DNA of 35,363 nucleotides, taken from positions 1-35,363 of the forward strand of contig DATDKQ010000241.1 in assembly GCA_036519915.1 (NCBI GenBank). Reading direction: 5' to 3'. The notes beneath the pieces were generated by a model. That model was not told where the DNA came from. It saw only the letters and a program-made list of their open reading frames with translations, and made no database searches. The position numbers were made by a program, and so were the translations under genes. This stretch comes from Solirubrobacterales bacterium. GTDB lineage: Bacteria; Actinomycetota; Thermoleophilia; Solirubrobacterales; 70-9. Below, piece after piece: positions 1,461 to 24,645 of the stretch. The stretch's first letter is position 1; every line of letters begins with the position of its first letter.

Positions 1461-1533
1461 TCGGAACAACCCCCTATTTCACTCGCTGGCGGGTATCGCG
1501 AGCTATACGGGCGAACGGGCTCTGCGGGATTGC

Positions 1534-2124: not shown

Positions 2125-2152
2125 GTGGTCAAGCGTAGGGGGCGGGGTGGCT

Positions 2153-2488
2153 CTACATGCCGGGGAGGCCCGGCAGCCCTCCGCCGCCGAGGCCGCCCGT
2201 GATGCCGCCCATGCGGTTGGCGGCGAGCTCTTGAGCGGAGCGCAGCGCCTCGTTGACCGCCGCGGTCACCATGTCCTGGAGCAGCTCGGGATCCTCGGGG
2301 TCGATCGCGTCCGGGGAGATCGTGATCTCGCGGAGCTGCATGTCGCCGGTCATCGTCACCTTGACCATGCCGCCGCCGGCGCTCCCCTCGACTGTCTCGT
2401 TCTTGAGCTCCTCCTGCGCCTTCGCCATCTCGGCCTGCATCTGCTGCGCCTGCTTGAGCAGCTGGTTGAGATTCGGTCCCTGAGGCAT
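2153..2488 (-). CDS. ybaB: YbaB/EbfC-family nucleoid-associated protein
   Basis: The 111-aa product has LLKQAQQMQAEMAKAQEEL, GGGMVKVTMTGDMQL..ISPDAIDPEDPELLQDMV and a Gly-rich tail. Its ATG shares one nt (2488) with the dnaX TGA (TGATG). Confidence 0.95.
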   Translation of the reverse strand: MPQGPNLNQLLKQAQQMQAEMAKAQEELKNETVEGSAGGGMVKVTMTGDMQLREITISPDAIDPEDPELLQDMVTAAVNEALRSAQELAANRMGGITGGLGGGGLPGLPGM

Positions 2489-4164
2489 CAGCCCGTCCCA
2501 CTCTCCCTCTTACCGTCGGGAACGACCTCGCTCGCATCGAAGCTGTCCTTGACGAGGTCGACCAGATCCTCCTCGCTGATCTCGGCCGATTCCTCGCAGG
2601 CGTCCTCACCCGGGCCGTCGATCAGCTCATAGACGGGCCGCAGGCGGTGGCCGGCGATCGAGGCGAGGGCCTCGGTCATCCGCTCGATGTTCACGGGGGA
2701 CTCGGCCTTCTTCTTGTTGAACTTCGCCGATGCCGGGAAGCCGATCCGCAGCACGGAGCGCTCCTCGTCGATGGCCAGCGGCTTCGCCTCGTCGAACAGT
2801 GTGGAGAGCATCGCGGAGCCGGAGTCGCGCAGGTGGTCGACCACTGCGGGCCAGAGCTCCACGACGCGCTCGATCTCGACTGTCGCGGTGGCGACGCTCG
2901 CCTCAGGCTCGTCGCGGTCGGGTGTTTCGTCCTCGGCCGGGGGACGCTCGGGCGCCTCGGCAGCCTCGGACACCTGAACAGTCTTGGGCGGCTCGACCGC
3001 TGGTCCACCCTCCTGATTGAGCTGTGTTTCGAGCGACTCGATGCGCCGGAGGAGAGCCTCGCGTGAGGAGTCCAGAGATGGGGTTGCCACCTTGAGCAGC
3101 GCGACCTCGAGGGTCAGCCGCGGATCGTCTCCCTCGCGCATCCCGGCGACCGCGCCGCTGAGGGCGTCAATCGCGCCCATCAGCTTGGCGTCGTCGATCG
3201 CCTCGGCCTGCCCGGCGAGTCGCTCGGGCTGGGCGACGGTGACCGTGAAGGAGTCGGGGACCTCGCCGGTCGCGCGGGCGACCAGGAGCTGGCGCAGATG
3301 GGCGATCAGGTCGCGGGCGAACTGGCCGGGGTCGCGCCCGGAGCGGGCGAGGCGCTCGACGGACTCGAGAGCCGCACGGGCGTCCCCCTCGGCGAGCGCG
3401 TCGGTGGTGTCGAAGAGAAGATCGGCGTCGGCGGCGCCGAGCATCTCAACGACCTCGTCGGTGGTCACGGTCTCGCCGCCGAAGGCGACCAATTGGTCGA
3501 GGGTTCCGAGTGCATCGCGGAAGCTGCCGGAGGCCGAGCGCGAGATCAGGGCGACGGAACCGTCGTCGATCTGGATCTTCTCGGCGGCGGAGACCCGCCG
3601 GACCACCTCGGCGATCTGCTCGAGCGAAGGCCGCTGGAAGTCGAAGCGCTGGCAGCGGTCGATGATGGTGGGCATCACCTTCTGGGGCTCGGTAGTCGCC
3701 AGGACGAAGGCGGTGTTGGGCGGCGGCTCCTCGAGCGTCTTCAGGAACGCGTTCCACGCCTCCTTGGTGAGCATGTGGGCCTCGTCGAGGATGTAGACCT
3801 TCCAGCGGCCGGCGGCCGGCGCGAAGCCGACCCGGTCGCGGAGCTCACGGATGTCGTCGACCGAGCGGTTCGAGGCGGCGTCCATCTCGATCACGTCGAG
3901 CGAGGTGCCCGCCGCGATCGTCTGGCAGGGCTCGCACTCACCGCACGGGGTCAGGGTCGGCCCCTGGACGCAGTTGAGCGAGCGGGCGAGGATCTTCGCC
4001 ATCGATGTCTTGCCCGTCCCCCGCGAGCCGATGAACAGGTAGGCGTGGTGGACCCGGCCCTTCTCGACAGCGTTCGAGAGGGTGCGCACAATGTGCTCCT
4101 GACCGACAACCTCCGCGAAGCTCTGCGGGCGGTGACGGCGGTAAAGAGAGGTGGGTTGGGCCAC
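2488..4164 (-). CDS. dnaX: DNA polymerase III subunit gamma/tau
   Basis: GTG start at 4162-4164. Walker A is GSRGTGKTS, the Zn module is CVQGPTLTPCGECEPCQ, and clamp-loader boxes YILDEAHML and VLATTEPQKVMPTIIDRCQRFDF are present. Synteny is dnaX-ybaB-recR. Confidence 0.95.
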   Translation of the reverse strand: MAQPTSLYRRHRPQSFAEVVGQEHIVRTLSNAVEKGRVHHAYLFIGSRGTGKTSMAKILARSLNCVQGPTLTPCGECEPCQTIAAGTSLDVIEMDAASNRSVDDIRELRDRVGFAPAAGRWKVYILDEAHMLTKEAWNAFLKTLEEPPPNTAFVLATTEPQKVMPTIIDRCQRFDFQRPSLEQIAEVVRRVSAAEKIQIDDGSVALISRSASGSFRDALGTLDQLVAFGGETVTTDEVVEMLGAADADLLFDTTDALAEGDARAALESVERLARSGRDPGQFARDLIAHLRQLLVARATGEVPDSFTVTVAQPERLAGQAEAIDDAKLMGAIDALSGAVAGMREGDDPRLTLEVALLKVATPSLDSSREALLRRIESLETQLNQEGGPAVEPPKTVQVSEAAEAPERPPAEDETPDRDEPEASVATATVEIERVVELWPAVVDHLRDSGSAMLSTLFDEAKPLAIDEERSVLRIGFPASAKFNKKKAESPVNIERMTEALASIAGHRLRPVYELIDGPGEDACEESAEISEEDLVDLVKDSFDASEVVPDGKRESGTG

Positions 4165-4199
4165 GAATCGAGTCTATCCGTCGCCTAGGCTGACCCTCG

Positions 4200-4532
4200 A
4201 TGGCCTACGACGAAGACCTCGCAGAGCGCGTCCGCGGGTTGGTCTCGGTTCGCGACAAGATCACGGAGAAGCGGATGTTCGGCAGCAACTGCTTCCTGGT
4301 GGGGGGCAACTTGGCGGTCTGCGTCCGCCAGGACGAGCTGCTCGTGCGCCTCGATCCCCCGGACGCCGAAAAGGCGATCACCGAAGAGGGAGTCCGAGTC
4401 GCCGAGATGGGACCACAGAAGCGGCAGATGAAGGGCTGGGTATTCGTGTCGGCCGAGCACCTTTCGGACGATGGCCTCTCCGACTGGGTCGATGCTGGCG
4501 CCGACTACGCCGCCTCGCTGCCATCGAAGTAG
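4200..4532 (+). CDS. TfoX/Sxy N-terminal-domain family protein
   Basis: ATG at 4200. MAYDEDLAERVR...EKRMFGSNCFLVGGNLAVCV...MKGWVFV...DWVDAGADYAASLP matches the common stand-alone TfoX_N architecture of about 110 aa. Confidence 0.8.
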   Translation: MAYDEDLAERVRGLVSVRDKITEKRMFGSNCFLVGGNLAVCVRQDELLVRLDPPDAEKAITEEGVRVAEMGPQKRQMKGWVFVSAEHLSDDGLSDWVDAGADYAASLPSK

Positions 4533-4626
4533 GCGGCAGAGACGCACCAGCCCGAGATTTCAAATCCGGCACAATTGCCTTTCAACCTGTAGGACCTGGT
4601 TGATCGTGCCGATGAGGGAGGTCGAG

Positions 4627-5394
4627 GTGCAGGGCGTCAGACACCTAGAGCAGTCTGAGGGCGAAGCCCCGGATGCCGAGCGCCTCCTGAAGGAGGTCGA
4701 GGCGGCGCGCCAAGACCTGGAGCTCCGGACGGCTGAGCTCGAGACCGCGCAGGCGCGTTTGAAGCAACTCGAGCACCGGCTGCGGCTGATTCATGAGAGC
4801 CGCCCCTATCGATTCGCGTTGAGGATGTGGCGCATCCGGGCGAAGATACGCGCCCCGCTTTCGCGCTCGCCCGCAGGAACTTCACCCGACCAGGAGGCGG
4901 CGGCAGCCGAAACGGTCCAACCGCCTCCGGCCCCGTATCAGGCGCCGGCCGCGGCTGGCTATTCGGAGGCAATCGCCGCGCAGGCCGAGGACGCAGATCC
5001 CGTCCCCATCGAGAACCCAGAGCCCGCCTCCGGCGGCGACGCAGAGCCCGTCTCCTATTGGGGCAGCCGCGGTGTCCGAGAGACTGACCCGGACCGGTCT
5101 GGCCCGTTGCGCGCCGTGATGCTGCTCGGGGGGCTGACCGAGCCGCAGCTCGACAGCGCGCTTCGTGAGCTGGCCCTGAACGGTGCGGCCGACGACGAGC
5201 CGCTCGTGATCACCGACTGCGACGCCCTCAGAACGCTCGACGGGTTCGGGTACCTGTACGAATACATTCCCCCGCGCGAGGATTGGGAGGGGCGCCTCGG
5301 GCGCGATGGCAACGAGTACGACGACTTCGTCGGTCGACGGCTCGTCTCGATCGCCGGCATGTACGGCGTGGCGGGCGTTCCCCCAACGAGGTGA
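4627..5394 (+). CDS. Coiled-coil protein with an SRxYR...WR motif, a P/A-rich linker and an uncharacterised C-terminal domain
   Basis: The track ORF (from 4471) overlaps the TfoX gene. The in-frame GTG at 4627 sits 5 nt after a strong AGGGAGG (4615-4621); ATG 4612 is the alternative start. Coiled coil: LLKEVEAARQDLELRTAELETAQARLKQLEHRLRL. Motif: SRPYRFALRMWRIR. No family was recognised for the C-terminal ~110 aa. Confidence 0.6.
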   Translation: MQGVRHLEQSEGEAPDAERLLKEVEAARQDLELRTAELETAQARLKQLEHRLRLIHESRPYRFALRMWRIRAKIRAPLSRSPAGTSPDQEAAAAETVQPPPAPYQAPAAAGYSEAIAAQAEDADPVPIENPEPASGGDAEPVSYWGSRGVRETDPDRSGPLRAVMLLGGLTEPQLDSALRELALNGAADDEPLVITDCDALRTLDGFGYLYEYIPPREDWEGRLGRDGNEYDDFVGRRLVSIAGMYGVAGVPPTR

Positions 5395-5404
5395 TCGTCC
5401 CGAG

Positions 5405-6682
5405 TTGACCTCCGTCCTCTTCATCACAAGCAATGGGGTCGGCATTGGCCACCTGACCCGTGCGATGGCCATTGCCCGCCGGCTGCCGGACGGGCTGACG
5501 CCGATCATGCTGACGATGTCCAAGGGGCTTCCGATCGCCCGTGAGCAAGGGTTCTACTGCGAGTACTTCCCGTCGAGTCAGGTGTCCGGCCTCGACAATC
5601 CGCAGTGGGCGACCGGCCTGGCGGCACGGATCGCGGCACTGATCGAGGAGCACGAACCGGCGGTGGTGGCCTTCGACGGGGTGTCGCCGTACGCCGGCCT
5701 GAGGAAGGCGCTGGCAGCTCATCCCGAGCCGGCCTCCATATGGATCAGAAGGGCGATGTGGCGCGCGGACAGAGGGGTGAAGCAACTCGAGTTCGCCGAA
5801 AGGTTCGACCGGGTGATAGAACCGGGCGAATTCGCTGCGGATGCCGACCAAGGACCGACGGTAGAGCGCCGCGACGAGGCCTTGACCGTCTCACCGATTC
5901 TCTTCTGCGACGAATCCGAGCTGCTTCCGCGTGGGCAGGCGGAAGCACAGCTCGGTCTCGATCCTGAGCGCCTGCATGTCCTGATTCAGCTGGGCGAGGT
6001 CCCCGAGCCCCAGCGGGACTTCATGCTGAGGAGCTGCGCCGCTCGCATCCTCCAGCATCCGGGGACCCAGGTGGCAATCCTGGAATCCGCGATCAGCGAG
6101 GACCTGGTCCTTCCCCCTTCAGTGGTCAAGCTCGCCGCCGTTTATCCGATCGCGCGTCTCTACCGGGCTTTCGACTTCGTGATCACCGCCGCCGGCTACA
6201 ACTCCTACCACGAGCTGATCCGGTTCAAGGTGCCAGCCGCCTTCTTCCCCGCTCCGAAGATGACGGACGACCAACAGGCACGAGCTCGCTACGCAGAGAC
6301 CGCCGGGGTCGGGGTGGAGGTGGGCCTGGACCCGACCCCCGCGGTGGAGACCCTGCTGGACGAGTCAAAGCGCGCACGAATGGCCAGCCGCGCCCACGAG
6401 ATGAGCTTCGCGAATGGCGCACAGGAGGCTGCCGACGAGATCGCACGCCTTGCCTCCTCGCCAGATGTGGCCGGCGTCGCGACTCGTGACGGGCGGCTCA
6501 GCCTGAAGACGGTCACGGCCGAGCAGCTCAGCGTGATCGAGGGGATCGGAGCCGTCACCGCCGACCGCGTCATCGAATATCGCGACCGGGCCGCCGAGCT
6601 ACCCACCGTCGACGACCTGCGCGAGGTTCGGGGCATCGGTCCGGCCACGCTCGAAGCGCTTCGGAGTCGACTGGGGCCTTGA
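5405..6682 (+). CDS. GT-B glycosyltransferase (GT28/MurG-PseG-like) with a C-terminal ComEA-type helix-hairpin-helix domain
   Basis: The N-terminal loop is VLFITSNGVGIGHLTRAMAIARRL and the C-lobe is ITAAGYNSYHELIRFKVPAAFFPAP..DDQQARA. The last ~60 aa (LKTVTAEQLSVIEGIGAVTADRVIEYRDRAAELPTVDDLREVRGIGPATLEALRSRL) match the ComEA HhH pattern. The 5306 ATG would overlap the upstream gene by 89 nt and gives an off-frame-looking peptide. TTG 5405, after GAGGTGA, is proposed as the start, but it is uncertain. Confidence 0.72.
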   Translation: MTSVLFITSNGVGIGHLTRAMAIARRLPDGLTPIMLTMSKGLPIAREQGFYCEYFPSSQVSGLDNPQWATGLAARIAALIEEHEPAVVAFDGVSPYAGLRKALAAHPEPASIWIRRAMWRADRGVKQLEFAERFDRVIEPGEFAADADQGPTVERRDEALTVSPILFCDESELLPRGQAEAQLGLDPERLHVLIQLGEVPEPQRDFMLRSCAARILQHPGTQVAILESAISEDLVLPPSVVKLAAVYPIARLYRAFDFVITAAGYNSYHELIRFKVPAAFFPAPKMTDDQQARARYAETAGVGVEVGLDPTPAVETLLDESKRARMASRAHEMSFANGAQEAADEIARLASSPDVAGVATRDGRLSLKTVTAEQLSVIEGIGAVTADRVIEYRDRAAELPTVDDLREVRGIGPATLEALRSRLGP

Positions 6683-6704
6683 GCCTGGCGACTGGTCCAG
6701 ACCG

Positions 6705-7484
6705 ATGAAGTCTCAGCACCTGGTAGTCACCCGCTACACGCTCAAAGGCTGGGCATACGAGGAGTTCTCGCCGGAGTGGCTCGAGGAGAGGATGCGCGTA
6801 TTTCGCACCTACTGCGTCCCCTCGATGGCCCAGCAGGACGTTGACTTCAACTGGCTGATCCTCTGCGATGAAACGACCGACTCCGATTACGTGGAGAGCA
6901 TTCGAGCGATCTCCAAGTCGGTTCCGGCGCTTAAGGTTGTCACCACCTCGAGGGACCGTGGGATCTGGTCACGCCATGCCGTCGCATCGGTACTCGATGA
7001 CGACACCGACCTCTTGATCACAAGCCGCCTGGACAACGACGATGCCCTGCACGAAGGCGCGCTGCGCACGATGCACGAGTACATCGAGCCGTTCTCCCGG
7101 TCCTCTCACGATGCGTTCCTGGTTCGCTTTCCCCGGGGCTACAGGTACGAGGAATCGAGCGGGCGGATGTTCAGCTCCTACTGGATGGACAGCCCATTCA
7201 TCACACTGTTCGAGAAGCTCGACGAGGACAGGAAGAACCTCCGGAACGTCTACTTCGCCCAGCACCCGAAGATTCACCTCGAAGTCGCCACTCACCTCGA
7301 GGAGTCGATTCCGGCCTGGTTGCAGGTCATCCACGGTCGAGCGCAGAGCACCAACCCGGAGGCGCTGGCTGGCGTTGCCCTGACCGGAGGCAACCGCCGG
7401 TCCGTGGTCAGCGGCGAAACTGACATCGAGGTGGACCCCGCGGGGGTCGGACCCGCCTTCGGGCTGGATCTGTGGGAGAGATGA
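6705..7484 (+). CDS. Putative rhamnosyltransferase-like glycosyltransferase (PF11316-like), paralog 1
   Basis: HLVVTRYTLKGW...FSPEWLEERMRVFRTYCVPSMAQQ..DFNWLILCDE...SRLDNDDALH resembles the 'putative rhamnosyl transferase' family. The family call is from memory. Confidence 0.78.
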   Translation: MKSQHLVVTRYTLKGWAYEEFSPEWLEERMRVFRTYCVPSMAQQDVDFNWLILCDETTDSDYVESIRAISKSVPALKVVTTSRDRGIWSRHAVASVLDDDTDLLITSRLDNDDALHEGALRTMHEYIEPFSRSSHDAFLVRFPRGYRYEESSGRMFSSYWMDSPFITLFEKLDEDRKNLRNVYFAQHPKIHLEVATHLEESIPAWLQVIHGRAQSTNPEALAGVALTGGNRRSVVSGETDIEVDPAGVGPAFGLDLWER

Positions 7485-8251
7485 ACTTTCAGCACCTGGT
7501 CATCACCCGCCTCACCATCAAGCTGTTCTATGAGGCGTTCTCACCGCAATGGCTCGAGGAGCGGCTCCGGCTCTTCCGCACCTACTGCGTCCCCTCGATG
7601 GCCGAGCAGACGAGTGACGAGTACGAGTGGCTCATCCTCTGCGACGAGTCCACGGACCCGGGTTTCTTAAGGGGGGTTGAGGAGAGCCGTTCCCTGGTGC
7701 CTCAACTCCGCATGGTGTACACGTCGAAGGAGCGCGACGTCCACATTCCGGACGCCCTGGGCTCCCTGATCCAGCCCGACACCGAACTGCTGGTCACTAC
7801 CAGGCTGGATGGCGACGACTCCCTCCACGCTGAGACGATCGCCGCCGTCCAGGGCTATGTGGGCGCCTTCGCGCGGTCTTCGAATCAGAGCTGGGTGCTC
7901 GACTTTCCTCTCGGCTACCGGTACGACGAGCCCAATCAGCGCCTCTACGAGGTGTTCTGGATGTACAGCCCATTCGCATCGCTGTTCGAGAAGCTCCGCC
8001 CCGGCAAGAGGTTTCGGAACGTCTATCGCAACCACCACCGGCTTCACCTCTTCAGCCCGGCCCACTTCGACCTCTCGATCCCCGCGTGGCTCCAAATCAT
8101 TCACGGGCGTGCTGAGCAACGATCCGGAACGGCAATCGAGGCCGGAAACCGTGACTCAGCGATCCGGGCCACGGACGTCGAGGTCAATCCCGCCGAGGTG
8201 GGGAACATGTTCGGCATCGACCTGGCGGAGAGGACCGCCCGGCCGGGTTAG
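7481..8251 (+). CDS. Putative rhamnosyltransferase-like glycosyltransferase (PF11316-like), paralog 2
   Basis: ATG 7481 overlaps the upstream stop (ATGA); the track start at 7472 is a GTG three codons earlier. The protein is collinear with paralog 1 and about half the residues are identical by eye (FQHLVITRLTIK, FSPQWLEERLRLFRTYCVPSMAEQ, WLILCDESTD, TRLDGDDSLH, IPAWLQIIHGRAE). Confidence 0.78.
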   Translation: MNFQHLVITRLTIKLFYEAFSPQWLEERLRLFRTYCVPSMAEQTSDEYEWLILCDESTDPGFLRGVEESRSLVPQLRMVYTSKERDVHIPDALGSLIQPDTELLVTTRLDGDDSLHAETIAAVQGYVGAFARSSNQSWVLDFPLGYRYDEPNQRLYEVFWMYSPFASLFEKLRPGKRFRNVYRNHHRLHLFSPAHFDLSIPAWLQIIHGRAEQRSGTAIEAGNRDSAIRATDVEVNPAEVGNMFGIDLAERTARPG

Positions 8252-8273: not shown

Positions 8274-9332
8274 TCAGGATCCCGCCGTCGCCGGCGTCGG
8301 CGTCGCCGGCGGAACCAATCGGAAGCGTGCCGCCGAGGCAATCGTCGCCAGACGGTGGGAGTAGGTGTGGGCGTGAAGGATCGCCTTCCTCGCCAAATCC
8401 GACATCTCGCCCCAGTCCTCTTCGGACCCAAGCATCCGCTCGATCCCCTCGTTGGCTTCGTCACGATCCTTCGTGACCAGGGCGGAGTAGCGAAACATAC
8501 GCCGGATCCCCGCGTGGTTTGGCGCGATCACGACGCTCCCCGCGGCCAGCGCCTCCATTGTGAGCTGAGGCACCACCAGGCGCCCGATGTTCGCCGGGTC
8601 GAAGCCGACCACCATGCGGCTGTCAGCGAATGCCTCCACCGCCTTTGACGCGGAAGGCACCGGTTTGACAAACGACGAGTAGCGCTCGGGGAGTGCGTCA
8701 TTGCTCCCGGCGCGCTCGGACCGGAAGATAACGAGGCCATGGTCGGCTGCGGCGTCGAGAATCGCCTCCAGCTCCTCCCGGAACCTCCCCGTGAAGCCCT
8801 CCGGCCATCGTTCGAGGAAGACGACCTGGTCCGAGCGGTCGCCGAACCCGGGCACTGAGTCGGGCACAGTCTGCGCCGCGAGCGGGAGTTGCATCGGCCG
8901 CCGACCCTTGAGTCGCTCGGTCACCGGCTCTCCTGCCTCGGGATCGGCCACGAAGAGGTGCTCCACCATGCGCATCAAGATGGTGGGCGTCTTGATCCGG
9001 CGTCTGAGCGCCGTCTCCCAGAGCGCCGTCGAGACGCCCTGCCGCTCAGCCCAGGCGATCAGCTCCGCCGCGCGTTCGACCTTCTCGTCAGCGAGCGGAC
9101 CCCCGCCGCCGGCGTGCGTCCGAAGCCCTGACGACTCGATGAGCAGCAGGTGGGGCAGCTCCTCGGAGCTCCAGTCCTGGTCCAGGACGTCGAGCGCGCT
9201 GCACGCGGCGCTGATGCACTCGAAGTGGGCGCTGCCGGCCACCGTCGCGACGCGCAAGTCCGCAACCGCTTCGGGGGCGTTGCCGTCAGATGTCTGCACA
9301 CGTGGCGCCAGAGAGTGATCATACGTCCACAC
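8274..9332 (-). CDS. CgeB-like glycosyltransferase (Glyco_trans_1_2-type C-terminal domain)
   Basis: GTG start at 9330-9332. The N-terminal part (DLRVATVAGSAHFECISAACSALDVLDQDWSSEELPHLLLIESSG) parallels the 14760-17162 product. The C-terminal part is VVPQLTMEALAAGSVVIAPNHAGIRRMF...ARKAILHAHTYSHRL. Confidence 0.75.
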   Translation of the reverse strand: MWTYDHSLAPRVQTSDGNAPEAVADLRVATVAGSAHFECISAACSALDVLDQDWSSEELPHLLLIESSGLRTHAGGGGPLADEKVERAAELIAWAERQGVSTALWETALRRRIKTPTILMRMVEHLFVADPEAGEPVTERLKGRRPMQLPLAAQTVPDSVPGFGDRSDQVVFLERWPEGFTGRFREELEAILDAAADHGLVIFRSERAGSNDALPERYSSFVKPVPSASKAVEAFADSRMVVGFDPANIGRLVVPQLTMEALAAGSVVIAPNHAGIRRMFRYSALVTKDRDEANEGIERMLGSEEDWGEMSDLARKAILHAHTYSHRLATIASAARFRLVPPATPTPATAGS

Positions 9333-9380
9333 CCAGAAACGCCGATGTGTTCATTCCAGGCGATCTTTACCCTGTCCGCG
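9333..9380. promoter_or_regulatory. Divergent intergenic gap expected to hold promoters for 8274-9332(-) and 9381-12527(+)
   Basis: This is inferred only from the divergent gene arrangement and the locally A/T-richer sequence. No -10/-35 boxes could be assigned with confidence. Confidence 0.3.
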
Positions 9381-12300
9381 ATGTCTCGCACTCTCGGCAG
9401 GGGAGCGGTCATGCTGGCGTTGGCCGTCTCCTTCTTCGCAGCTTGGACTGCGCGCGCTCAAGCCTGCGCCCCGCTCGCCTGCTCGGAGATCCGGGTCGAT
9501 CTTCCCTACACGCTCGACTTCAGCTCAGATCAGGGCAAGATCCAGGATGCGAACGGCGTCGGCACGGGATTCACCTATGTCGATCCGCCAAGCAGCGGCA
9601 CCGGGTACATCCCCGCCAACTTACAAGTCGACCAGGCGGCCGGCGTGCTGAACGTGACCACCACCGCCGGACTTGCCTTCAAGGCTGGGAACTCCCAGGA
9701 CAACGCGCTCGGCGTGGGGGTCGACGCCCCCAGCCAGGTGACCAGAATCGAGACGACCTTGGACTCGATGCCTGCTGCCAGCAACAACAACGAGCAGGCG
9801 GGGCTCTGGTTCGGCAACGACCAGGACAACTACCTGAAGCTGGTGACGATCGACACTCCGGCCGGCACGCGGATCCAGTTCCTGATGGAGGTGAACGGCC
9901 AGTCCGTCGATAACCAGCAGAGCCCCTTCGTCGACCTGGACGGCCACAACCTCTCCCTCAGCCTGGTTGCCGACCCAACCACCCAGCGCGTGGCGGCCAC
10001 CTACCAGATCGATTCCGGCGCTCCGGTCTCCTTTGAGCAGGATCAGGCGCCAGGTGAATTCTTCTCGTTCGACGCCGCGCGAATCGACCCGAACATCGGG
10101 ACTGACACCTTCACTGGCATCCTCGCCAGCCATCGGGGGGCGACCACTCCGCTCGTCTACCACTTCAATCGTTTCTCGGTGGTCAAGCAGGCCGATGTCG
10201 GTCCGCCTCCGGGTGACCTGCTCAGGGACGGCATCGCCTTCAAGTCCAGCTCCTTCCCGATCGACTTCCCAACCTCCATGGCGATGGGACCCGACGGACG
10301 GCTCTACGTCTCGGAGCTTTTTGGCACCATCCATGCGCTCACCCTGAATGACGACAAGCAGGTGATCGATGACCAGGTGATCACCACCTTGGGCGAGCGA
10401 TTCACGCTCGGCTTGACCGTCGATCCCGAATCGACGCCGAGCAACGTCATCCTCTGGGTGGCGCACTCGAGCCCCTCGATCGACAATGGAGTGCCCAATT
10501 CGGGCATCGTCTCGCGCCTCTCCGGTCCCGGCTTCGCGACGCGGGAGGACGTGATCACCGGGCTCCCGCGAGCAGTGGCGAATCATGGGACCAACGCCCT
10601 GCATTTCGGGCCCGACGGCAAGCTCTATATCGCACAGGGAGGCAACACCGGGGCCGGGGGGCCGAACCAGATCCCCGGCTCGGAGTTCGGCGACATGCAG
10701 GAGCAGCCTCTGTCAGCGGCTCTGCTTGTCGCCGACGTACGCAATCCAGGGTTTGACGGGTCGTGCGACAACCCGAGCGACATCTTCGGGCCCCCTCCCT
10801 GCGACGTGCAGACCTATGCAACCGGGATGCGCAACACCTACGACTTCGTCTTCCATTCCAACGGGCAGATCTACGGAGCCGACAACTCGGTCGGGACGCA
10901 ATCGACCTTCCCCCCCTCTCCCACACCGCCATGCCTCGGCTTTTCGAACCCGGCCCAGTGGGACGCCAACCCTCCCGGCGATGGGGTGGATCCCCTCCAC
11001 GATCCACTCAACCGGCTGGTCGAGGGCGGTTACTACGGACACCCCAACCCGTCTCGTAACCAGTGCGTCTTCTTTGACGGGCGGTTCCAGGGCGTCCCGC
11101 CACTGCCGAACTACCATCCGCCCCTCTACGACCTCGGCGATCACCGCTCGGCGGACGGGATCATCGAATACGCGTCCGACACCTTCTGCGGCTCGCTGAA
11201 GGGCGACCTGCTGCTCGCGAACTATGGGATCGGCGACGACATCACCCGGGTCGAGCTGAGCGACGACGGTACAGCTGTCACCCGCTCAGACAGCCTCCTG
11301 GGCGGCTTCAACGACCCCGTCCCGCTCGCCCAGGATCAGGACGGGACGATCTTCGTCGGCGAGTTCGGCGCCGGCCAGGTGACGGCGCTGTCCCCGGTCA
11401 ACATCGGCTGCTGGGCGGACCGCGCCCCCCTGCCGGCGGAACTGCTCGACGCCGGGGGAGCCGCTCTCGGCGGCAAGCTCTACCTGGTTGCCGGCGAGGC
11501 CGACGCCGGTCATCTATCCACGCTGTGGATCTACGACCCGGCCACAGACTCCTGGAGCTCGGGGCCGCCCCTGCCGGGACCGGCGGTGGAGAACCCGGCC
11601 GTGGCGGTGGACGGCGGAAAGCTCTACGTCTTCGGCGGGTCGACCCATTCGTTCTCGGGCGCCCAGAGCAACGCCGCGGTCTTCGACCCCACCACCAACA
11701 GCTGGACCAGCCTCCCGCCGATGGCGACCGCTCGCGGCGGAGCGATGGCAAAGGCGATCGATGGGAAGATCTACGTGGCCGGCGGGCTCGGAGCGGACGG
11801 TGCATCGCTGGATTCCGTCGAGGTCTTCGATCCCGCCGCCGCTGGCGGCGTGGGTGCCTGGAGCAGCGCGGCCGCGATGGGCACTCGCACCGACAACGCC
11901 GGCTCGGCCGTTCTCGACGGAAAGCTCTACGTGTTCGGAGGCGGCACCCGGAACTCGGACGGGAGCTATGTCGACCGAACCCTGGATACGGTCGAGATGT
12001 ACGACCCCGGCACCGATAGCTGGGCCGGTCGCGCCCCGATGCCCACCGGCCGCCAGTCGGTGATCGTGGGGACCTTGAACGGCCGCGCCCAGGTGATGGG
12101 CGGCGAGGTCAACCCGGCCGCGCCCGGCACGTTCGCCGCCAACGAGGAGTACGACCCGCTGACGGACAGTTGGCGCGGTCTGCACTCCGTGCCGACGCCC
12201 CGGCACGGCGCGACGGCGGCCACGATCGGCGACGTGATCTACGTCGTCGGGGGCGGACCGGAGTCTCTGACCTCGTTCTCCGGGGTCAACGAGGCCTTCT

Positions 12301-12527
12301 CGTTCAAGCCCTTCTCGGGTCCCCCGCCCCCGCCTCCGCCTCCGCCTCCGCCCCCGCCCCCGCCTCCGCCCCCGCCCCCGCAATCTCCGGCGGCCGGTCA
12401 GCCGGCGGGAACCGGCAGTGGTCCGCCCTGCGGGGCCCTCCGCAAGAAGCTGAAGAGGGCAGAGAGGCGAGGTAATAAGGCCAAGGTGCGCCACTTCCAC
12501 CGGAAGCTGCGCCGCCTGGCCTGCTAG
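9381..12527 (+). CDS. Large secreted multidomain protein: signal peptide, LamG/lectin-like domain, PQQ-type glucose/sorbosone-dehydrogenase-like beta-propeller, six Kelch repeats, polyproline, polybasic tail
   Basis: The signal peptide is MSRTLGRGAVMLALAVSFFAAWTARAQA. ATG 9411 has a better SD (GGGGAG) but would lack a charged n-region. The track start at 9150 overlaps the divergent gene. GSDH-like motifs are GPDGRLYVSE, HGTNALHFGPDGKLYIAQGGN, GMRNTYDFVFHSNGQIYGADN and GGYYGHPNP. Kelch blades are GGKLYLVAGE, DGGKLYVFGG, IDGKIYVAGG, LDGKLYVFGG, LNGRAQVMGG and IGDVIYVVGG, each followed by [YF]DP..[DN]SW. Stop is TAG at 12525-12527. Confidence 0.85.
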   Translation: MSRTLGRGAVMLALAVSFFAAWTARAQACAPLACSEIRVDLPYTLDFSSDQGKIQDANGVGTGFTYVDPPSSGTGYIPANLQVDQAAGVLNVTTTAGLAFKAGNSQDNALGVGVDAPSQVTRIETTLDSMPAASNNNEQAGLWFGNDQDNYLKLVTIDTPAGTRIQFLMEVNGQSVDNQQSPFVDLDGHNLSLSLVADPTTQRVAATYQIDSGAPVSFEQDQAPGEFFSFDAARIDPNIGTDTFTGILASHRGATTPLVYHFNRFSVVKQADVGPPPGDLLRDGIAFKSSSFPIDFPTSMAMGPDGRLYVSELFGTIHALTLNDDKQVIDDQVITTLGERFTLGLTVDPESTPSNVILWVAHSSPSIDNGVPNSGIVSRLSGPGFATREDVITGLPRAVANHGTNALHFGPDGKLYIAQGGNTGAGGPNQIPGSEFGDMQEQPLSAALLVADVRNPGFDGSCDNPSDIFGPPPCDVQTYATGMRNTYDFVFHSNGQIYGADNSVGTQSTFPPSPTPPCLGFSNPAQWDANPPGDGVDPLHDPLNRLVEGGYYGHPNPSRNQCVFFDGRFQGVPPLPNYHPPLYDLGDHRSADGIIEYASDTFCGSLKGDLLLANYGIGDDITRVELSDDGTAVTRSDSLLGGFNDPVPLAQDQDGTIFVGEFGAGQVTALSPVNIGCWADRAPLPAELLDAGGAALGGKLYLVAGEADAGHLSTLWIYDPATDSWSSGPPLPGPAVENPAVAVDGGKLYVFGGSTHSFSGAQSNAAVFDPTTNSWTSLPPMATARGGAMAKAIDGKIYVAGGLGADGASLDSVEVFDPAAAGGVGAWSSAAAMGTRTDNAGSAVLDGKLYVFGGGTRNSDGSYVDRTLDTVEMYDPGTDSWAGRAPMPTGRQSVIVGTLNGRAQVMGGEVNPAAPGTFAANEEYDPLTDSWRGLHSVPTPRHGATAATIGDVIYVVGGGPESLTSFSGVNEAFSFKPFSGPPPPPPPPPPPPPPPPPPPPQSPAAGQPAGTGSGPPCGALRKKLKRAERRGNKAKVRHFHRKLRRLAC
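12321..12380 (+). repeat. (CCN)20 microsatellite-like tract encoding a run of 20 prolines
   Basis: The tract reads ccc ccg ccc ccg cct ccg cct ccg cct ccg ccc ccg ccc ccg cct ccg ccc ccg ccc ccg, in frame within the 9381-12527 CDS. Confidence 0.9.
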
Positions 12528-14755
12528 CCGAGCAGCTGACGCGCCGCCTGCCCAGGCTGCTCCGATTTCGGTGACGGTAGAGACAGGAGCTCGTCCCAGA
12601 TGGGCATGACCTCCTCGAAGCTCCAGCGCTGGACGAACTCACCGGCCCGGCGCTGTTCCGCCGCCAGGAGCTCGTGCTCGGTCAACTTCAGGACGGCAGC
12701 CGCCGCAGCCTCGGGGGTCTGATGGACCCAGCGCCCGGTGTACTGCTCCACGGCGCCGGGGCGCTCCAGAATGATGGGAACACAGCCGGAGGCCATCCCC
12801 TCGGCAACCGCGACCTGGTGGCCTTCGTGTTCGCTGGTCGAGAGGATGAAGCCGGCCTTTTGGAGGAAGCCTCCAATGCCCTCCCTGTAAGGCTCGAACG
12901 ACACTGCCCTGCGCAGCACGGACGAGGCGCGAATCCTGCGGAGCTGCTCCTCGAAGTAGCTTCGCTCGTCTGGGCGCGCCCATAGCCATTCGTATTCCCA
13001 GGGGGGCCGGCCCTTGAGCAACAGGCGGAATCTGCCGTCCTCGCCTCGCAATTGCTCGATCAGATCGAGGGCGCGGTCCAGCCGCTTGCGCGCCGGCACG
13101 TAGCCCACCAGGGCCAGGTTGAAGGAGCTCCAGGCGAACTTGGGACGTCGCAGCGCCTTGACATCGATGGCGTTGGGGACGACCATCAGCTTCTCCTCGG
13201 GCCATCCGTAGCGCTCGGCGGCCTCGTCGAGCAGGTGACGCCCTACGAAGACGATTCGGTGCACACGATCGACGTCTACGGAGGGAGGGAAGTCGGTCTC
13301 GCGCTCCTGCCTGTGAAAGCGGACGACCAGCCGCGGCTTCGCGTCGAGGTTTCTGCTGTACCAGACCGAGTTGCCCAGGCACCATTCGCAGAAAACGGTG
13401 TCGGACCACCTACCCAGCCGGCCGCTGACCGATTTGTCCGTTTGATCGTGCCCCGGCCAAAGATCCAGGCGCACGCGGGCCCCGCTGGCCTCCGCGTGCG
13501 CGGGAATCGGGCCCAGGAACCTGAGATCGTGTCCGGCGATCACCAGGTGAAGCCTGGAGTCGGTCCTCGAGGATCGAGAGTACGTCCCGACCAGATCCCG
13601 CAGTTCCGGTGCGAGTCGAGCAGCGACGCGATCAAAGCTGTAATCGCGGCTGACGCTTAGACAGCGCTCGGCCGCCGAGGCGCGGAGAGAAGGGTCCTCC
13701 GCGAGCTGGGCAAGCATCTGCAGGACCTCGCCGGGGTCGGTTGCGAACAGTGGATAGTCGGGACCCAACAGCTGGTCATAGACCGGCGTGCGATTGAGGA
13801 TCACCGCGCAGCCCGCTGCGCCGTACTCGAGGAGCTTCGTCGCGAGCTCCTTGTCCATCATCGGGTGACGGACCGAGAGGGCAACGTCGGCTTCGCGCAT
13901 CAGCCCGAAGGCCCTGTCCCGCGACAGTCCCCCGTGCCAGACGAGGTTCTCGGTCTCGTTCAGGGCGGCCTCGGCAGCGGGCTTGAAGGCGGGATCGTCG
14001 GGCGGGTTATGGACCTTGTCCCCGACCACGTGCAGCTCCGCCTCGGGATGGCTCCGCCGCAGGCGGCGAAAGGTCTCCACCATCTCCAGGAAGTAGTACT
14101 CGGGGGCGAACTTGCCGGCGTAGAGCAGCTTCAGGGATCCCACGCCTGCGCGTTCAGGCGGCACCGTCGGCGGCGCAGGGATCATCGGGGGCAGCAGGAT
14201 CACCTTGTCGCGGTGCTCAGCAGCAGCAGCCGCGGCCATCGCCTTGATCGTGTCGGTCTGGCAGAGGATGCGCTCGCAGGAGGGCGCGATCAGCCGCAGG
14301 TGCTCGACCTCGCCCCCCGGTTCGTAGTCGTGCGGTGGCAGGTAATAGACCCAGAGCCGCCCTGCGAAGGAGTCGGTTCCGCAGATCTGCTCGCTGACCG
14401 CCCTGCCGCGCAGCAGCACCAGGTCGAAACCCTGCTGGGCGTCGAGGGACTGCAGGCAGTCGATCGCCTCGGCCGCGCCGAGTGGGCCCCCGTGGCCGAG
14501 AGAGTCGGGCTCGACCAGCTCGATCCGGGGGTGAATACGCAGGGGAGCCGTCAGCACGTCGCGCTCCTCGGCCGTTCGCAGCAGCAGGGTGACCCGCACC
14601 CAGGGCAGGGTCGTAAGCATTTGTGCCACCGACTGCACCCACACCGAGGAACCGTCGATCAGGTTCATGTTGACCTCGCCATACAGCGCGACGCGGACCG
14701 TGCGGCGGGCCTTCACCTGGGCCTCTGGCTCGCCCGCAAGTTGCAGCGGGTTCAT
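12524..14755 (-). CDS. Two-module glycosyltransferase (tandem GT4-like GT-B domains)
   Basis: ATG 14753-14755 lies 4 nt after the upstream TAG; the track start at 15019 overlaps the upstream gene and gives an R/S/P-rich junk peptide. Module 1 has LLYAGKFAPEYY...LHVVGDK...KLLEYGAAGCAVILNRT. Module 2 has FNLALVGYVPARKR...FILSTSEHEGHQVAVAEGMASGCVPII. Confidence 0.8.
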   Translation of the reverse strand: MNPLQLAGEPEAQVKARRTVRVALYGEVNMNLIDGSSVWVQSVAQMLTTLPWVRVTLLLRTAEERDVLTAPLRIHPRIELVEPDSLGHGGPLGAAEAIDCLQSLDAQQGFDLVLLRGRAVSEQICGTDSFAGRLWVYYLPPHDYEPGGEVEHLRLIAPSCERILCQTDTIKAMAAAAAAEHRDKVILLPPMIPAPPTVPPERAGVGSLKLLYAGKFAPEYYFLEMVETFRRLRRSHPEAELHVVGDKVHNPPDDPAFKPAAEAALNETENLVWHGGLSRDRAFGLMREADVALSVRHPMMDKELATKLLEYGAAGCAVILNRTPVYDQLLGPDYPLFATDPGEVLQMLAQLAEDPSLRASAAERCLSVSRDYSFDRVAARLAPELRDLVGTYSRSSRTDSRLHLVIAGHDLRFLGPIPAHAEASGARVRLDLWPGHDQTDKSVSGRLGRWSDTVFCEWCLGNSVWYSRNLDAKPRLVVRFHRQERETDFPPSVDVDRVHRIVFVGRHLLDEAAERYGWPEEKLMVVPNAIDVKALRRPKFAWSSFNLALVGYVPARKRLDRALDLIEQLRGEDGRFRLLLKGRPPWEYEWLWARPDERSYFEEQLRRIRASSVLRRAVSFEPYREGIGGFLQKAGFILSTSEHEGHQVAVAEGMASGCVPIILERPGAVEQYTGRWVHQTPEAAAAAVLKLTEHELLAAEQRRAGEFVQRWSFEEVMPIWDELLSLPSPKSEQPGQAARQLLG

Positions 14756-14759
14756 CGTC

Positions 14760-17162
14760 CTAACCCGCGTAAGCAGACTCGACGACCCGGGATGCGGCCC
14801 GGGGCGGCAGCCCGAGGGCAGGATCGGCCCGGAAGTTCGTCGCGCTCCCCGAGAAAAAGCGAATGCCGTGGCGTGACCAGTCGCGCAGGGTCTCGCCCGC
14901 ACCGGGCATGCGATCCGGCCAGCCCCGGTTGACGACGAGCTTGCGGCTTGCGATCGCCGAGTGAGGGTGTACGGAGTCGACGTACGAGAGCTCCAGGTCA
15001 TCCTGGGTGGAGGCCGCATCCGAGATCACGTCGAAGGCGGCGCTCCCGATCACGTCGGCCTCCGCGAAACGCGTGCAGACGAGCAGGTCCATGAAGTGGT
15101 ACTCGCCGTAATGGTGCGCCGGGTCGACGATCCCGACCCAGGGCGACGAGGCGAGCGAGGCGAGCTCCCTGAACCGTTTGGTTCGCTCTCCGCCCTGGTC
15201 CTGCTGCACGACCTGAACCCGGACGTCGCTGCGGGCATCGGAGAGCTCGTGGAGGTCGCCGGCCACGGATGTCTCCAGGCCCAGGCCGATCAGGAACTCC
15301 CCTGGTACCGATCTCTGCGAAGAGATCGCGGCCACCAGGTCACTGACCTTGCGCGCCTGATCCGCGTCGTCGATCAGCGCGAGCGCTGCGATCCCGTCGC
15401 CGAGTGCGGCCGACACGGAATACCCCATCGTCTGACCGATCAGCGCCAGGCGCTGCCTGTAGGTGTGCTCCGTCATCACCAGGCGCCTGGCCGGCACGAC
15501 GATCTCCCGCCGATAGTCGTCGTCGTGAATCAGATGGGTGAGCGCCTCGGTCGCCTGATCGGGCGTCGTCACCGCGGGGACCAGCTCGCCGAAGGTCCTC
15601 TCGACGCCCTCGCTCTCGGTGGTGAGGACCGCCGCATCGCAGGCGAGCAGCTCGAAGACCCTGCGCGAGAACATCGTCGGTGAGTCGACCACGGAGTTCA
15701 CGTTGAGGAAGACCTTGTGGCTCTTGTATGCGCGCACCACCTCCGAATAGGGGAGCGAGCCCCTGACGTGAGGGAGGAAGCGCTCGGGGAAGCCGAACGT
15801 ATCGTTGTCCCAGTCGAACGTGCGGTCATAGATGACGAGCCCGAAGGGGCGGGCCGCATCCAGCAGCATCTCCAGGCTCTGCCGCCGGTCCAGGTGGCGG
15901 TTCCTGTAGTAGGTGCCGGCGAAACAGGGCGAATCGCTGCGCTTCTGGTCGATCGAGATTGGGTTGTGCGTGCGTGGCTGGGCCGCAAACTGCAGGGCCC
16001 TGACCGGACCGGTTCCCTCCCGTTGAAGCTGCTCGTAGCGGGGCACGCAATTGCCGTCCGTCGTGAAGACGTAGTCGAAGAGCGCGGCGGCCTCCTTGAA
16101 ACGGTCGAAGTGAATCGGGTCCTCCTTACCCCAGAACGCAGTCGGGATGTCCCGCTGCCTGCACCAGTCGACCAGCGCTCTCAGCTTCGGCAGTCCGCGA
16201 ACATCGGCGCGCGGATAGCTCCCCACCTGGTAACGCCAGGACTCACCGTTGCCGCGCCATGCGGACTCCACCAGCAGCAGATGGGGCTGGTGCTCCTCCA
16301 GGCGTTCCTGCCAGTCCTCCGAATCGAAGGTCAGGAGGTCGCACTCCGGGCGGAAGCAGTTCGCTGACATCTCGTCGAGCACGGCCGCCACCCGCAGGTC
16401 GCGGGGGTCCGTCGGTTCCGATGTCGACCGCTCGGGCTTGACACGCACCTCCCCGTCGCCCTCTGCCGCGGATCGCCCCTCGCTGTCGCCGAGCTCGGGC
16501 GCCCTCGCCGGAGCCAACCCCTTCGCTGGGGCGGACGGCTCCGCGGGGGCCGACGGCCCAGGCCCCGTCACCGGCCCGAGCTCCTGCCGGCGGGATCGCC
16601 GGATCGGGTGACGCACGGCGGCACTGACTCGCCACAGAACCCGCATCAGCCTGTATGACCGACTCGACTGCAGCGCCTCGACCCGCCGTAGCAGCCGGTC
16701 GTGTTCATCCTTCTGCTTGCGCGCCTTCTTGTCGCGGCTGGTCAGCTGTTGTTTGAGGGTTGCGACCCGCGCCCCCTGCTCGGCCAGCTCGGTTTCCAGT
16801 GAGTCAAGCCGGTTGACCTTCTCCTCCAGCTGCTGGGAGCGGAGGTCGCGATCCGCGACTGCCGCCTCGGCGTCTCGGGCTCGCCACTTCAGCTCTTCCA
16901 CGCGCTCCTTCTGCTCGGCCAGCCGCGCCTGCAACGCCTCGCGTTCCGCGCCCAATCGGGCGATCTGCTCGCGGTGGCCGACGATCAACTCGTTCAGGTC
17001 GCGCTCGCGTGCCTCCAACACGGCGAGTCGGTGGGCGAGCGCGAAGGCCCGATCGTCGCGAGCCACAGCCGCCTCGCCCGCGTGGCCGCCCTCGCTCACG
17101 TCGCCTGACTCGCGAGTCGGCGCCCCTGTCCTTGAAGTCTCATTGCCGCGATCGTCGCTCAC
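14760..17162 (-). CDS. Coiled-coil + CgeB-like glycosyltransferase + additional C-terminal domain
   Basis: GTG start at 17160-17162, with GAAGAGGG upstream. An N-terminal coiled coil of ~170 aa ends in SSRSYRLMRVLWRV and is followed by a P/A-rich linker. The CgeB-like core is DLRVAAVLDEMSANCF...HLLLVESAWRG...FLNVNSVVDSPTMFSRRVFELLACDAAVLT...TEHTYRQRL. About 230 further aa have no assigned family. Confidence 0.8.
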   Translation of the reverse strand: MSDDRGNETSRTGAPTRESGDVSEGGHAGEAAVARDDRAFALAHRLAVLEARERDLNELIVGHREQIARLGAEREALQARLAEQKERVEELKWRARDAEAAVADRDLRSQQLEEKVNRLDSLETELAEQGARVATLKQQLTSRDKKARKQKDEHDRLLRRVEALQSSRSYRLMRVLWRVSAAVRHPIRRSRRQELGPVTGPGPSAPAEPSAPAKGLAPARAPELGDSEGRSAAEGDGEVRVKPERSTSEPTDPRDLRVAAVLDEMSANCFRPECDLLTFDSEDWQERLEEHQPHLLLVESAWRGNGESWRYQVGSYPRADVRGLPKLRALVDWCRQRDIPTAFWGKEDPIHFDRFKEAAALFDYVFTTDGNCVPRYEQLQREGTGPVRALQFAAQPRTHNPISIDQKRSDSPCFAGTYYRNRHLDRRQSLEMLLDAARPFGLVIYDRTFDWDNDTFGFPERFLPHVRGSLPYSEVVRAYKSHKVFLNVNSVVDSPTMFSRRVFELLACDAAVLTTESEGVERTFGELVPAVTTPDQATEALTHLIHDDDYRREIVVPARRLVMTEHTYRQRLALIGQTMGYSVSAALGDGIAALALIDDADQARKVSDLVAAISSQRSVPGEFLIGLGLETSVAGDLHELSDARSDVRVQVVQQDQGGERTKRFRELASLASSPWVGIVDPAHHYGEYHFMDLLVCTRFAEADVIGSAAFDVISDAASTQDDLELSYVDSVHPHSAIASRKLVVNRGWPDRMPGAGETLRDWSRHGIRFFSGSATNFRADPALGLPPRAASRVVESAYAG

Positions 17163-21481: not shown

Positions 21482-21524
21482 TCGCGGCGAGGTTAACGGA
21501 CGCCTGTAGCCTTTCTTCCCCGCG

Positions 21525-24544: not shown

Positions 24545-24645
24545 GAACCAATCCCTCTCACCGGTCAGCGGCAAGCGTAGTTCATGGGATCCGAGATCAG
24601 CACCTAACCTTCTGGGCAGCCGCGGGTGGGGACGCAGAGCTGCCG
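24545..24645. promoter_or_regulatory. Divergent intergenic region expected to hold promoters for 22472-24544(-) and the 24646-29654(+) block
   Basis: Inferred from the divergent arrangement. The region contains a ggcagc...gctgcc inverted repeat (24617-24643) just upstream of ATG 24646. No promoter boxes were assigned. Confidence 0.3.

Follow-up and report, generated by a model that had tools for sequence, protein, structure and literature searches.

What is the role of a large exported protein that joins a lectin-like sandwich to two different beta-propellers and is encoded in the midst of genes for glycan assembly? The question is raised by a 35,363-nucleotide contig of a Solirubrobacterales bacterium (DATDKQ010000241.1, assembly GCA_036519915.1), the whole of which was analysed and is hereafter called the window. 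Our answer, to which we assign a probability of about 0.6, is that this three-domain protein is a glycan-acting extracytoplasmic enzyme of the exopolysaccharide (EPS) pathway, in the general sense of the term. A narrower version, in which its central propeller would be a sugar oxidoreductase of the soluble glucose dehydrogenase (sGDH) type, is proposed from residue conservation as a tentative refinement that falls somewhat short of an even chance.

The gene lies in open reading frame (ORF) 9150-12527(+) of the window ORF list, within which the ATG at 9381 opens a 1048-residue product that begins with MSRTLGRGAVMLALAVSFFAAWTARAQA. Close homologues, with 79-91% identity, have the same start methionine, and the third-position GC content (GC3) of the gene is 0.84. 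A whole-protein AlphaFold2 (AF2) model built from 54 homologues reached a mean predicted local distance difference test score (pLDDT) of 87.4 and a predicted template modelling score (pTM) of 0.69. In this model, residues 28-273 form a beta-sandwich, residues 280-672 and 677-975 each form a six-bladed propeller, the proline stretch is disordered, and helices span residues 1017-1045. A preliminary description, made from the letters of the window without database searches, had portrayed an exported protein with a lectin-like part, a propeller of the glucose/sorbosone dehydrogenase (GSDH) type, six Kelch blades, 20 prolines and a polybasic tail. Pfam, Foldseek and the AF2 model together bear out the lectin-like domain and the two propellers, and the observation itself is confirmed. 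The epithet "giant" overstates the case, a protein of 1048 residues being large.

The central propeller carries most of the argument. The Pfam GSDH profile (PF07995) matches the whole protein with 38.1 bits and the isolated domain with 42.9 bits, the cut-off being 25, and it matches 35 of 35 relatives (best E-value 3.3e-17). When compared with the Protein Data Bank (PDB), the window protein alone retrieved the Pyrobaculum aldose sugar dehydrogenase (PaeAsd, 3A9G) at 2.6e-7, and the family profile retrieved sGDH (1C9U and 5MIN) at about 1e-6 and 2ISM and 3A9G at about 2e-3. Alignment of the family profile with 1C9U by hhalign (the sGDH sequence used is identical to chain A of that entry) gave a probability of 96.6% and an E-value of 6.9e-10 over sGDH residues 25-268. 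The AF2 model resolves six four-stranded blades in this domain, and the motifs from which a sugar-dehydrogenase-like propeller had been proposed are indeed present. According to the hhalign alignment, His402 of the family corresponds to His144 of sGDH, Asn401 to Asp143, Arg484 to Arg228, Asn485 to Asn229, Tyr487 to Gln231 and Asn502 to Gln246, and column counts over 54 sequences find all of these family residues to be invariant. His144 has been proposed as the general base of sGDH, in which Arg228 and Asn229 flank the reactive carbonyls of pyrroloquinoline quinone, PQQ (PMC6881810). The invariance of the catalytic histidine and of the Arg-Asn pair makes an oxidising activity of the propeller plausible. 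Furthermore, of the three domains, conservation is highest in the GSDH-like one, with 45-66% identity across phyla in tblastn comparisons, a pattern that suits a catalytic domain better than a lectin.

The two flanking domains can also be assigned to known folds. At the N-terminus, the Pfam GH43_C2 profile falls just under its threshold in the window protein (E-value 2e-4, score 21.4 vs a cut-off of 22.7) and matches 21 of 33 relatives (best 5.7e-8), with DUF1349 matching 9 of the 33. A separate AF2 model of this domain (pLDDT 90.2) retrieved with Foldseek the C-terminal domain of the GH43 beta-xylosidase 6MS3 (E-value 2.9e-10, TMq 0.62), the DUF1349 proteins 3O12 and 3MEP (TMt 0.72-0.76) and legume lectins as well; a sequence-profile search of the PDB with the same domain gave no matches. 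The region had been called LamG/lectin-like, and fold comparison upholds the second half of that label but not the first: no Laminin_G family was found in Pfam at E-values up to 1 for the window protein or 0.1 for the relatives, and the domain is instead concanavalin A (ConA)-like, of the GH43_C2/DUF1349 type.

The C-terminal propeller is matched by Kelch_1 (PF01344) at 7.9e-50 (166 bits, five repeats detected) and, among PDB sequences, resembles the designed SAKe proteins and KLHL12 at 1e-48 to 1e-36. A Foldseek search with the whole model returned Kelch matches only, with TMt of 0.84-0.90 to six-bladed KLHL/NS1-BP Kelch domains, and the Kelch part of the model has at least 24 strands in six groups, in accord with the six blades counted originally. 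Some more specific Kelch profiles also respond. Pfam Kelch_3 and Kelch_4 ("Galactose oxidase, central domain") match generically, and Pfam NANM scores 76 bits vs a cut-off of 45; the NCBIfam NanM/YjhT models stay far under their cut-offs (NF010730, 69.4 vs 416; TIGR03547, 60.4 vs 256), as does the NCBIfam GlxA model (10.7 bits vs 800, E-value 0.11). The Kelch propeller contains no cysteine in 53 of the 54 members, and its sole conserved histidine is His942.

The three core domains constitute one conserved unit, because they occur together in essentially every relative, are joined by very short conserved linkers, and were modelled jointly with a pTM of 0.69. A database search yielded 544 related proteins, the best 120 of which cover at least about 90% of the query with 56-91% identity and the same Pfam set, and more than 500 proteins have a core of these three domains in common, with 45-66% identity across about 90% of the core. 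A scan of genomes, one per species, detected 138 relatives, the closest being encoded, with 80% identity and the same gene order, in a metagenome-assembled genome of the Solirubrobacterales, an order of monoderm Actinomycetota. Others come from Chloroflexota, many Marinobacter species, Halospina, Ferrimonas, Cellvibrio, Georgenia, Motilibacter and Frankiales, and further ones from the cyanobacteria Anabaena, Scytonema and Rivularia and from Planctomycetota, Myxococcota and Rokubacteria. Most relatives carry long immunoglobulin (Ig)/BACON-like extensions at the N-terminus and do not continue beyond the Kelch domain; the surface modules vary and include the basic tail, RTX repeats or fn3 domains. 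In the source databases, the relatives are named "Kelch repeat-containing protein", "large repetitive protein" or by a COG-style name pair, and literature searches for the domain combination and for the family in Marinobacter/exosortase loci found no relevant paper. The family is large, strongly conserved, abundant in databases and uncharacterised. The earlier remark that the combination was not recognised as a described enzyme holds insofar as no paper on the architecture was found; with hundreds of homologues, the architecture is nevertheless neither unique nor rare. In two cases, paralogous copies lie close together, namely, in Halospina denitrificans (1899-4721 and 5989-7173 of locus L029) and on a single 45,750-bp contig (P0014 and P0015).

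The genomic setting points to glycan assembly. Pfam searches show that the three-domain gene of the window is surrounded by a run of glycan-assembly genes, including two Rhamno_transf paralogues, CgeB-like and GT4 transferases, a heparinase II/III-like protein, methyltransferases, a Wzx-like flippase and a UDP-glycosyltransferase. The same arrangement is found on a forest-soil contig that is 86% identical. Around distant relatives, Wzy/Wzx/GT2/GT4 loci were found in Gaiellaceae and on two metagenomic contigs, and the homologue of Marinobacter similis A3d10 is encoded in an exosortase-A locus together with PrsT, XrtA, a GT2, Wzx, an XrtA-associated O-ligase-like protein and an XrtA-system GT4. 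The Marinobacter homologues lack a PEP-CTERM sorting signal, their chains stopping directly after the Kelch domain. The loci of Thermobaculum and of two long contigs have no glycan-assembly neighbours.

In a Pfam census of three genes on each side of the homologue in 62 dereplicated loci, 240 proteins were scanned. These neighbours include 30 GT2 glycosyltransferases, at least 12 of the GT1/GT4 type, 13 Wzx-type flippases, 6 exosortases, 6 EpsI-like DUF3485 proteins and 7 purple-acid-phosphatase (PAP)-like proteins (Pur_ac_phosph_N); the PAP figure was taken from this census because the per-locus "PAP" labels are partly inflated by shared Ig-like domains. Counted by locus with seed proteins, which makes the figures lower bounds, at least 31 of the 53 usable loci have a glycan-assembly gene within 10 kb, and at least 26 have one no more than three genes away. 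About one quarter of the neighbours are thus polysaccharide-assembly genes, in unrelated phyla and two pathway types, far above our expectation by chance, which was set without a formal background. The placement of the gene in a glycan locus, divergent from a CgeB-like glycosyltransferase, was correctly described at the outset. It is not peculiar to this contig: homologues in other phyla are likewise encoded in loci of the Wzx/Wzy and exosortase-A types.

Two other kinds of neighbour recur. Large secreted PAP-like proteins, which combine Pur_ac_phosph_N and Metallophos with Big, PA14 or cadherin domains, adjoin homologues in three loci (L002, 15304-18240; L005, 6657-9980; L039, 14801-21424), and DUF5060 proteins are likewise found repeatedly beside homologues in distant phyla. 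Both may be functional partners of the three-domain protein.

The protein also has the features of an exported one. By inspection only, residues 1-27 resemble a Sec signal peptide, with a basic n-region, a hydrophobic core and a cleavage site between ARA and QA, and the AF2 model places a low-confidence helix at residues 10-22. There are three conserved cysteine pairs, C29/C34, C462/C474 and C518/C562, the first of which is nearly invariant in the family, and no transmembrane segment is present in the protein. Given the signal peptide, the three cysteine pairs and the lack of a membrane segment, the protein looks exported. Anchoring as a lipoprotein was considered and rejected on inspection: the cysteine that follows the signal peptide has no lipobox, and its register shifts among relatives.

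The part that follows the Kelch propeller is peculiar to the lineage. The 20-proline run is encoded by a near-perfect hexanucleotide repeat, (CCS-CCG)n, and just 4-7 prolines occupy this position in close relatives; on these two grounds, the length of the linker looks prone to slippage. The C-terminal 32 residues include 14 Lys/Arg, with a cysteine at each end, and are modelled as helices at 1017-1030 and 1033-1045 with a block pLDDT of about 94. Both the proline linker and the basic Cys-flanked tail are restricted to the close clade of the window, the tail being conserved only in five homologues from the database search (P0001-P0005) and at locus L009. Judging from its composition and model, the polybasic module is likely to serve envelope retention. 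Tethering to the envelope, which the preliminary description had suggested, would therefore apply to the Solirubrobacterales clade of the window and not across the family. A similar stretch occurs in another gene of the window, 903-1469 (-), which encodes a small secreted protein with a basic Cys-containing stretch, AAKKCKKRHSAKKKCAKKKRRKA, immediately after the signal peptide. Comparable sequence is found at the C-termini of homologues P0002 and P0004 (KKCKKKSSKKARKRCRKKARK) and in the tail of the three-domain protein itself. The polybasic Cys-stapled stretch may be a lineage-specific surface-retention module common to several exported proteins.

From the domain identities, the conserved catalytic residues, the export features and the recurrent context, we infer a scheme for cofactor use, substrate, reaction and tethering. 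The protein would be a Sec-exported accessory component of exopolysaccharide or cell-wall-glycan assembly that acts outside the cytoplasm, with the central sGDH/GSDH-type propeller as its catalytic part. With His402 as general base and a quinone-type cofactor (PQQ with Ca2+) polarised by Arg484 and Asn485, the C1 hydroxyl of an aldose would be oxidised to the lactone. The likeliest substrate would be a free sugar at the reducing end, either of the polymer once released or of its repeat units. Holding and presenting the glycan would fall to the two flanking domains, namely, the Kelch propeller and the ConA-like sandwich, whose type is the one that closes the active site in GH43 propeller enzymes; the Kelch domain could also speed the interconversion of anomers in a NanM-like manner. 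In the lineage of the window, whose cells are monoderm, the enzyme would be kept at the anionic cell surface by the flexible poly-Pro linker and the disulfide-stapled polybasic helical hairpin.

Several points weigh against this reading. The last two blades of the propeller show no alignment with sGDH residues 320-454 (hhalign probability 0.2%). In a by-eye alignment of motifs, Ile/Val617, Asp645 and Leu/Val647 stand opposite sGDH Lys377, Arg406 and Arg408, which we take to be the residues that bind the PQQ carboxylates. Synthesis of PQQ is not known from many of the host lineages, such as the cyanobacteria and Chloroflexota. A secreted dehydrogenase needs an electron acceptor, and a c-type cytochrome neighbour was found in one locus only. 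EPS structures vary by species and the protein is highly conserved, so that it must act on something that all of these polymers share. Finally, about 40% of the loci have no nearby glycan genes. Among the catalytic and cofactor-contacting residues of sGDH, His144, Arg228 and Asn229 have invariant counterparts but the basic clamp of blades 5 and 6 is not recognisable; other invariant basic residues, Arg397, Arg559, His492 and His554, could take the place of the carboxylate binders. Because the catalytic face is kept but the last two blades cannot be aligned to sGDH, PQQ binding is considered putative. The cytochrome in question is a 170-residue c-type protein (Cytochrome_CBB3) encoded directly downstream of the homologue in a Solirubrobacterales locus (L004, 14125-14637, on a contig shared with L015); it is a possible electron acceptor, in this one locus.

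Of the competing explanations, a non-redox glycan-processing enzyme survives best. It would be a lyase, hydrolase, epimerase or releasing enzyme that employs the His/Arg/Asn pocket without PQQ to trim, release or remodel the exported polymer, in the manner of PslG, AlgL or BcsZ. Such an enzyme would show the same association with EPS loci as a dehydrogenase, and it would accommodate the last two blades, which form the cofactor clamp in sGDH and are unrecognisable here, as well as a ConA-like domain whose nearest counterpart is the accessory domain of GH43 propeller hydrolases. The recurrent PAP-like and DUF5060 neighbours, too, point to hydrolytic partners (DUF5060 is presumably a domain of GH140-type proteins). 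We nonetheless regard this explanation as unlikely: the residues that are kept are exactly those that serve hydride transfer to PQQ in sGDH, no CAZy-type catalytic family was matched in Pfam or NCBIfam, and to our knowledge no GSDH-family propeller is a hydrolase or a lyase.

The protein might instead have no catalytic activity and act in the matrix or as an adhesin, that is, as a secreted multivalent lectin that links the exopolysaccharide to the cell surface like Bap1 and RbmC of Vibrio cholerae. A lectin-like sandwich with two propellers, the Ig/BACON-like N-terminal extensions of most relatives, surface-retention modules that differ among relatives (basic tail, RTX repeats, fn3 domains) and a position in EPS loci would all suit this role, and GSDH-fold proteins without a cofactor exist, HHIP being an example. 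The lectin of a species-variable EPS should diverge, however, whereas here the pocket residues are invariant and identity stays at 45-66% across phyla, which makes this role improbable. We find it quite improbable that the protein is a stand-alone scavenger, either a sugar dehydrogenase or a degradative enzyme, secreted for use on environmental glycans, its position in the locus having no functional meaning. Some relatives do lie among housekeeping genes or beside phosphatase-like or DUF5060 proteins with no glycosyltransferases nearby (Thermobaculum, L003, L004), and BACON-like domains are typical of glycan-foraging proteins; yet about one quarter of the genes within three positions encode glycosyltransferases, Wzx or exosortases, in unrelated phyla and two pathway types, and synteny with glycosyltransferase genes is maintained in close relatives. 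Last, a Kelch propeller acting on the glycan as a radical copper oxidase of the galactose-oxidase/GlxA type, for which Streptomyces CslA-GlxA is a precedent and which the generic Kelch_3 and Kelch_4 matches might suggest, is refuted at the sequence level, because all copper ligands of galactose oxidase are missing from the Kelch part, the six blades (not seven) are KLHL-like, only one histidine is conserved, the GlxA model scores far under its cut-off, and the lack of cysteine in 53 of the 54 members makes a Cys-Tyr cofactor impossible.

The fate of Wzx/Wzy-made or exosortase-associated EPS after export, that is, release, end finishing and retention, is little known. A glycan-acting enzyme of the EPS pathway with the properties described here would be a concrete candidate for such a step, because its core is 45-66% identical from Thermoleophilia to Marinobacter and cyanobacteria, is encoded beside glycosyltransferases in about half of the loci, and keeps the catalytic residues of sGDH. 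If active, it would be a bacterial enzyme with the sGDH fold that works on polymers, in a new domain combination. It is possible, rather than probable, that it represents an unrecognised and widely conserved extracytoplasmic step of EPS production, common to monoderm Wzx/Wzy-type and proteobacterial exosortase-A/PEP-CTERM loci, in which the quinoprotein-like propeller chemically modifies a shared feature of the polymers; oxidation or release of the reducing terminus would be examples.

Table 1. Positions in the window of the three-domain gene, its parts and its two adjoining genes
Feature	Position	Strand	Basis
Whole coding sequence, three-domain secreted protein (1048 codons + stop)	9381..12527	+	translation, homologue starts
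Signal-peptide-like N-terminus (residues 1-27), cleavage predicted between ARA and QA, then conserved CxPLxC Cys pair	9381..9461	+	sequence inspection
ConA-like beta-sandwich, GH43_C2/DUF1349 type (residues 28-273)	9462..10199	+	Pfam, AF2, Foldseek
GSDH/sGDH-type six-bladed beta-propeller (residues 280-672)	10218..11396	+	Pfam PF07995, PDB profile matches, hhalign
Codon of His402, equivalent to the general base His144 of sGDH	10584..10586	+	hhalign and HMM alignments; 54/54 members
Codons of Arg484-Asn485, equivalent to Arg228-Asn229 of sGDH	10830..10835	+	hhalign and HMM alignments; invariant
Six-bladed Kelch beta-propeller (residues 677-975)	11409..12305	+	Kelch_1, PDB matches, Foldseek
20 proline codons, disordered linker	12321..12380	+	DNA read-out, low pLDDT
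Polybasic C-terminal module (residues 1017-1048), modelled two-helix hairpin	12429..12524	+	sequence, AF2
Divergent CgeB-like glycosyltransferase (Glyco_trans_1_2), 48 bp upstream	8277..9332	-	Pfam PF13524, 1.5e-12; also in L001 and L009
Convergent double GT4-type glycosyltransferase, stop codon overlapping that of the three-domain gene	12527..14758	-	Glyco_trans_1_4 + Glycos_transf_1; syntenic in L001 and L009

Several other genes of the window have features of their own. The putative rhamnosyltransferase paralogues (PF11316) form a tandem, 6705-7481 (+) and 7472-8248 (+), with a 10-base overlap, and the pair is kept in the syntenic contig L001. The products of 4471-5391 (+) and 14763-17162 (-) both have a coiled-coil region, after which comes the motif S-R-x-Y-R-[FL]-x-x-R-x-W-R (SRPYRFALRMWRIR and SRSYRLMRVLWRV); the latter protein runs on into a CgeB-like glycosyltransferase, and the former has no Pfam match. 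The heparinase II/III-like protein, 19574-21535 (-), comprises N and C domains, has no obvious signal peptide and is also encoded in L001. The product of 22475-24574 (-) is a fusion protein that starts with a zinc-ribbon-like CxxC...CxxC part and further comprises a methyltransferase-like segment and a region with a weak match to sortilin/BNR-like propellers; its Pfam matches are all sub-threshold. Farther along, a secretion ATPase of the PilB/GspE type (T2SSE, 2.7e-131), 30948-33080 (+), is followed by a 577-residue exported protein with no Pfam match, 33111-34841 (+).

Comparison with known systems places the three-domain protein among GSDH-type propellers, Kelch propellers and ConA-like sandwiches, and outside galactose oxidase/GlxA, the orthologues of NanM and the LamG domains. 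For the Kelch part, the systems compared are GlxA and NanM. CslA-GlxA of Streptomyces includes an envelope-associated extracytoplasmic Kelch-containing oxidase encoded beside glycosyltransferases in an actinobacterial surface-glycan locus, a setting shared by the window protein, itself a candidate Kelch-containing oxidase; the seven blades, the Cys-Tyr cofactor and the N-terminal membrane anchor of the copper radical oxidase GlxA, however, are all absent from the window protein. The sialic-acid mutarotase NanM/YjhT is, like the domain described here, a six-bladed exported bacterial Kelch propeller, and the Pfam NANM score is 76 bits vs 45, but in this comparison by profiles, the NCBIfam models are far under cut-off and generic Kelch models score much higher. 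In the N-terminal part, the GH43 beta-xylosidases provide the closest parallel, a ConA-like sandwich nearest to GH43_C2, which packs on the catalytic propeller; here, in contrast, the order of domains is reversed, the propeller is of the six-bladed GSDH type instead of the five-bladed GH43 type, and there is no GH43 catalytic domain. Bap1 and RbmC of Vibrio cholerae are secreted matrix proteins, composed of a propeller and lectins, that are tied to the exopolysaccharide; their eight-bladed propellers and beta-prism lectins are unrelated to the domains of the window protein, which can be likened to them by general plan only.

The resemblance extends farthest in the sugar dehydrogenases. With sGDH (GdhB of Acinetobacter calcoaceticus, 1C9U) and the enzymes of the Asd/YliI type (3A9G, 2ISM), the window family shares detectable homology, an extracytoplasmic six-bladed propeller and the equivalents of His144, Arg228 and Asn229. 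It differs from them in blades 5 and 6, which cannot be aligned and in which the basic clamp that we take to hold the PQQ carboxylates is unrecognisable; in a Cys-bridged insertion of about 30 residues between the "DN" and "YYGHP" motifs; in the fusion of the propeller on both sides, to the ConA-like and Kelch domains; and in its location in EPS loci and not in those of sugar catabolism. The fungal PQQ-dependent pyranose dehydrogenases of family AA12 (CcPDH, TrAA12) are secreted proteins of the sGDH fold with the catalytic histidine, the arginine pair and fused carbohydrate-binding or accessory domains (PMC6881810). Unlike the window family, with which they were compared by description, they are eukaryotic, and their partner domains are cytochrome b and CBM1 instead of ConA-like and Kelch domains. 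On the strength of these shared residues, the working mode of the three-domain protein would be most like that of the sGDH, Asd and AA12 enzymes, from which it is set apart by the flanking domains, blades 5 and 6, the Cys-bridged insertion and the genomic setting.

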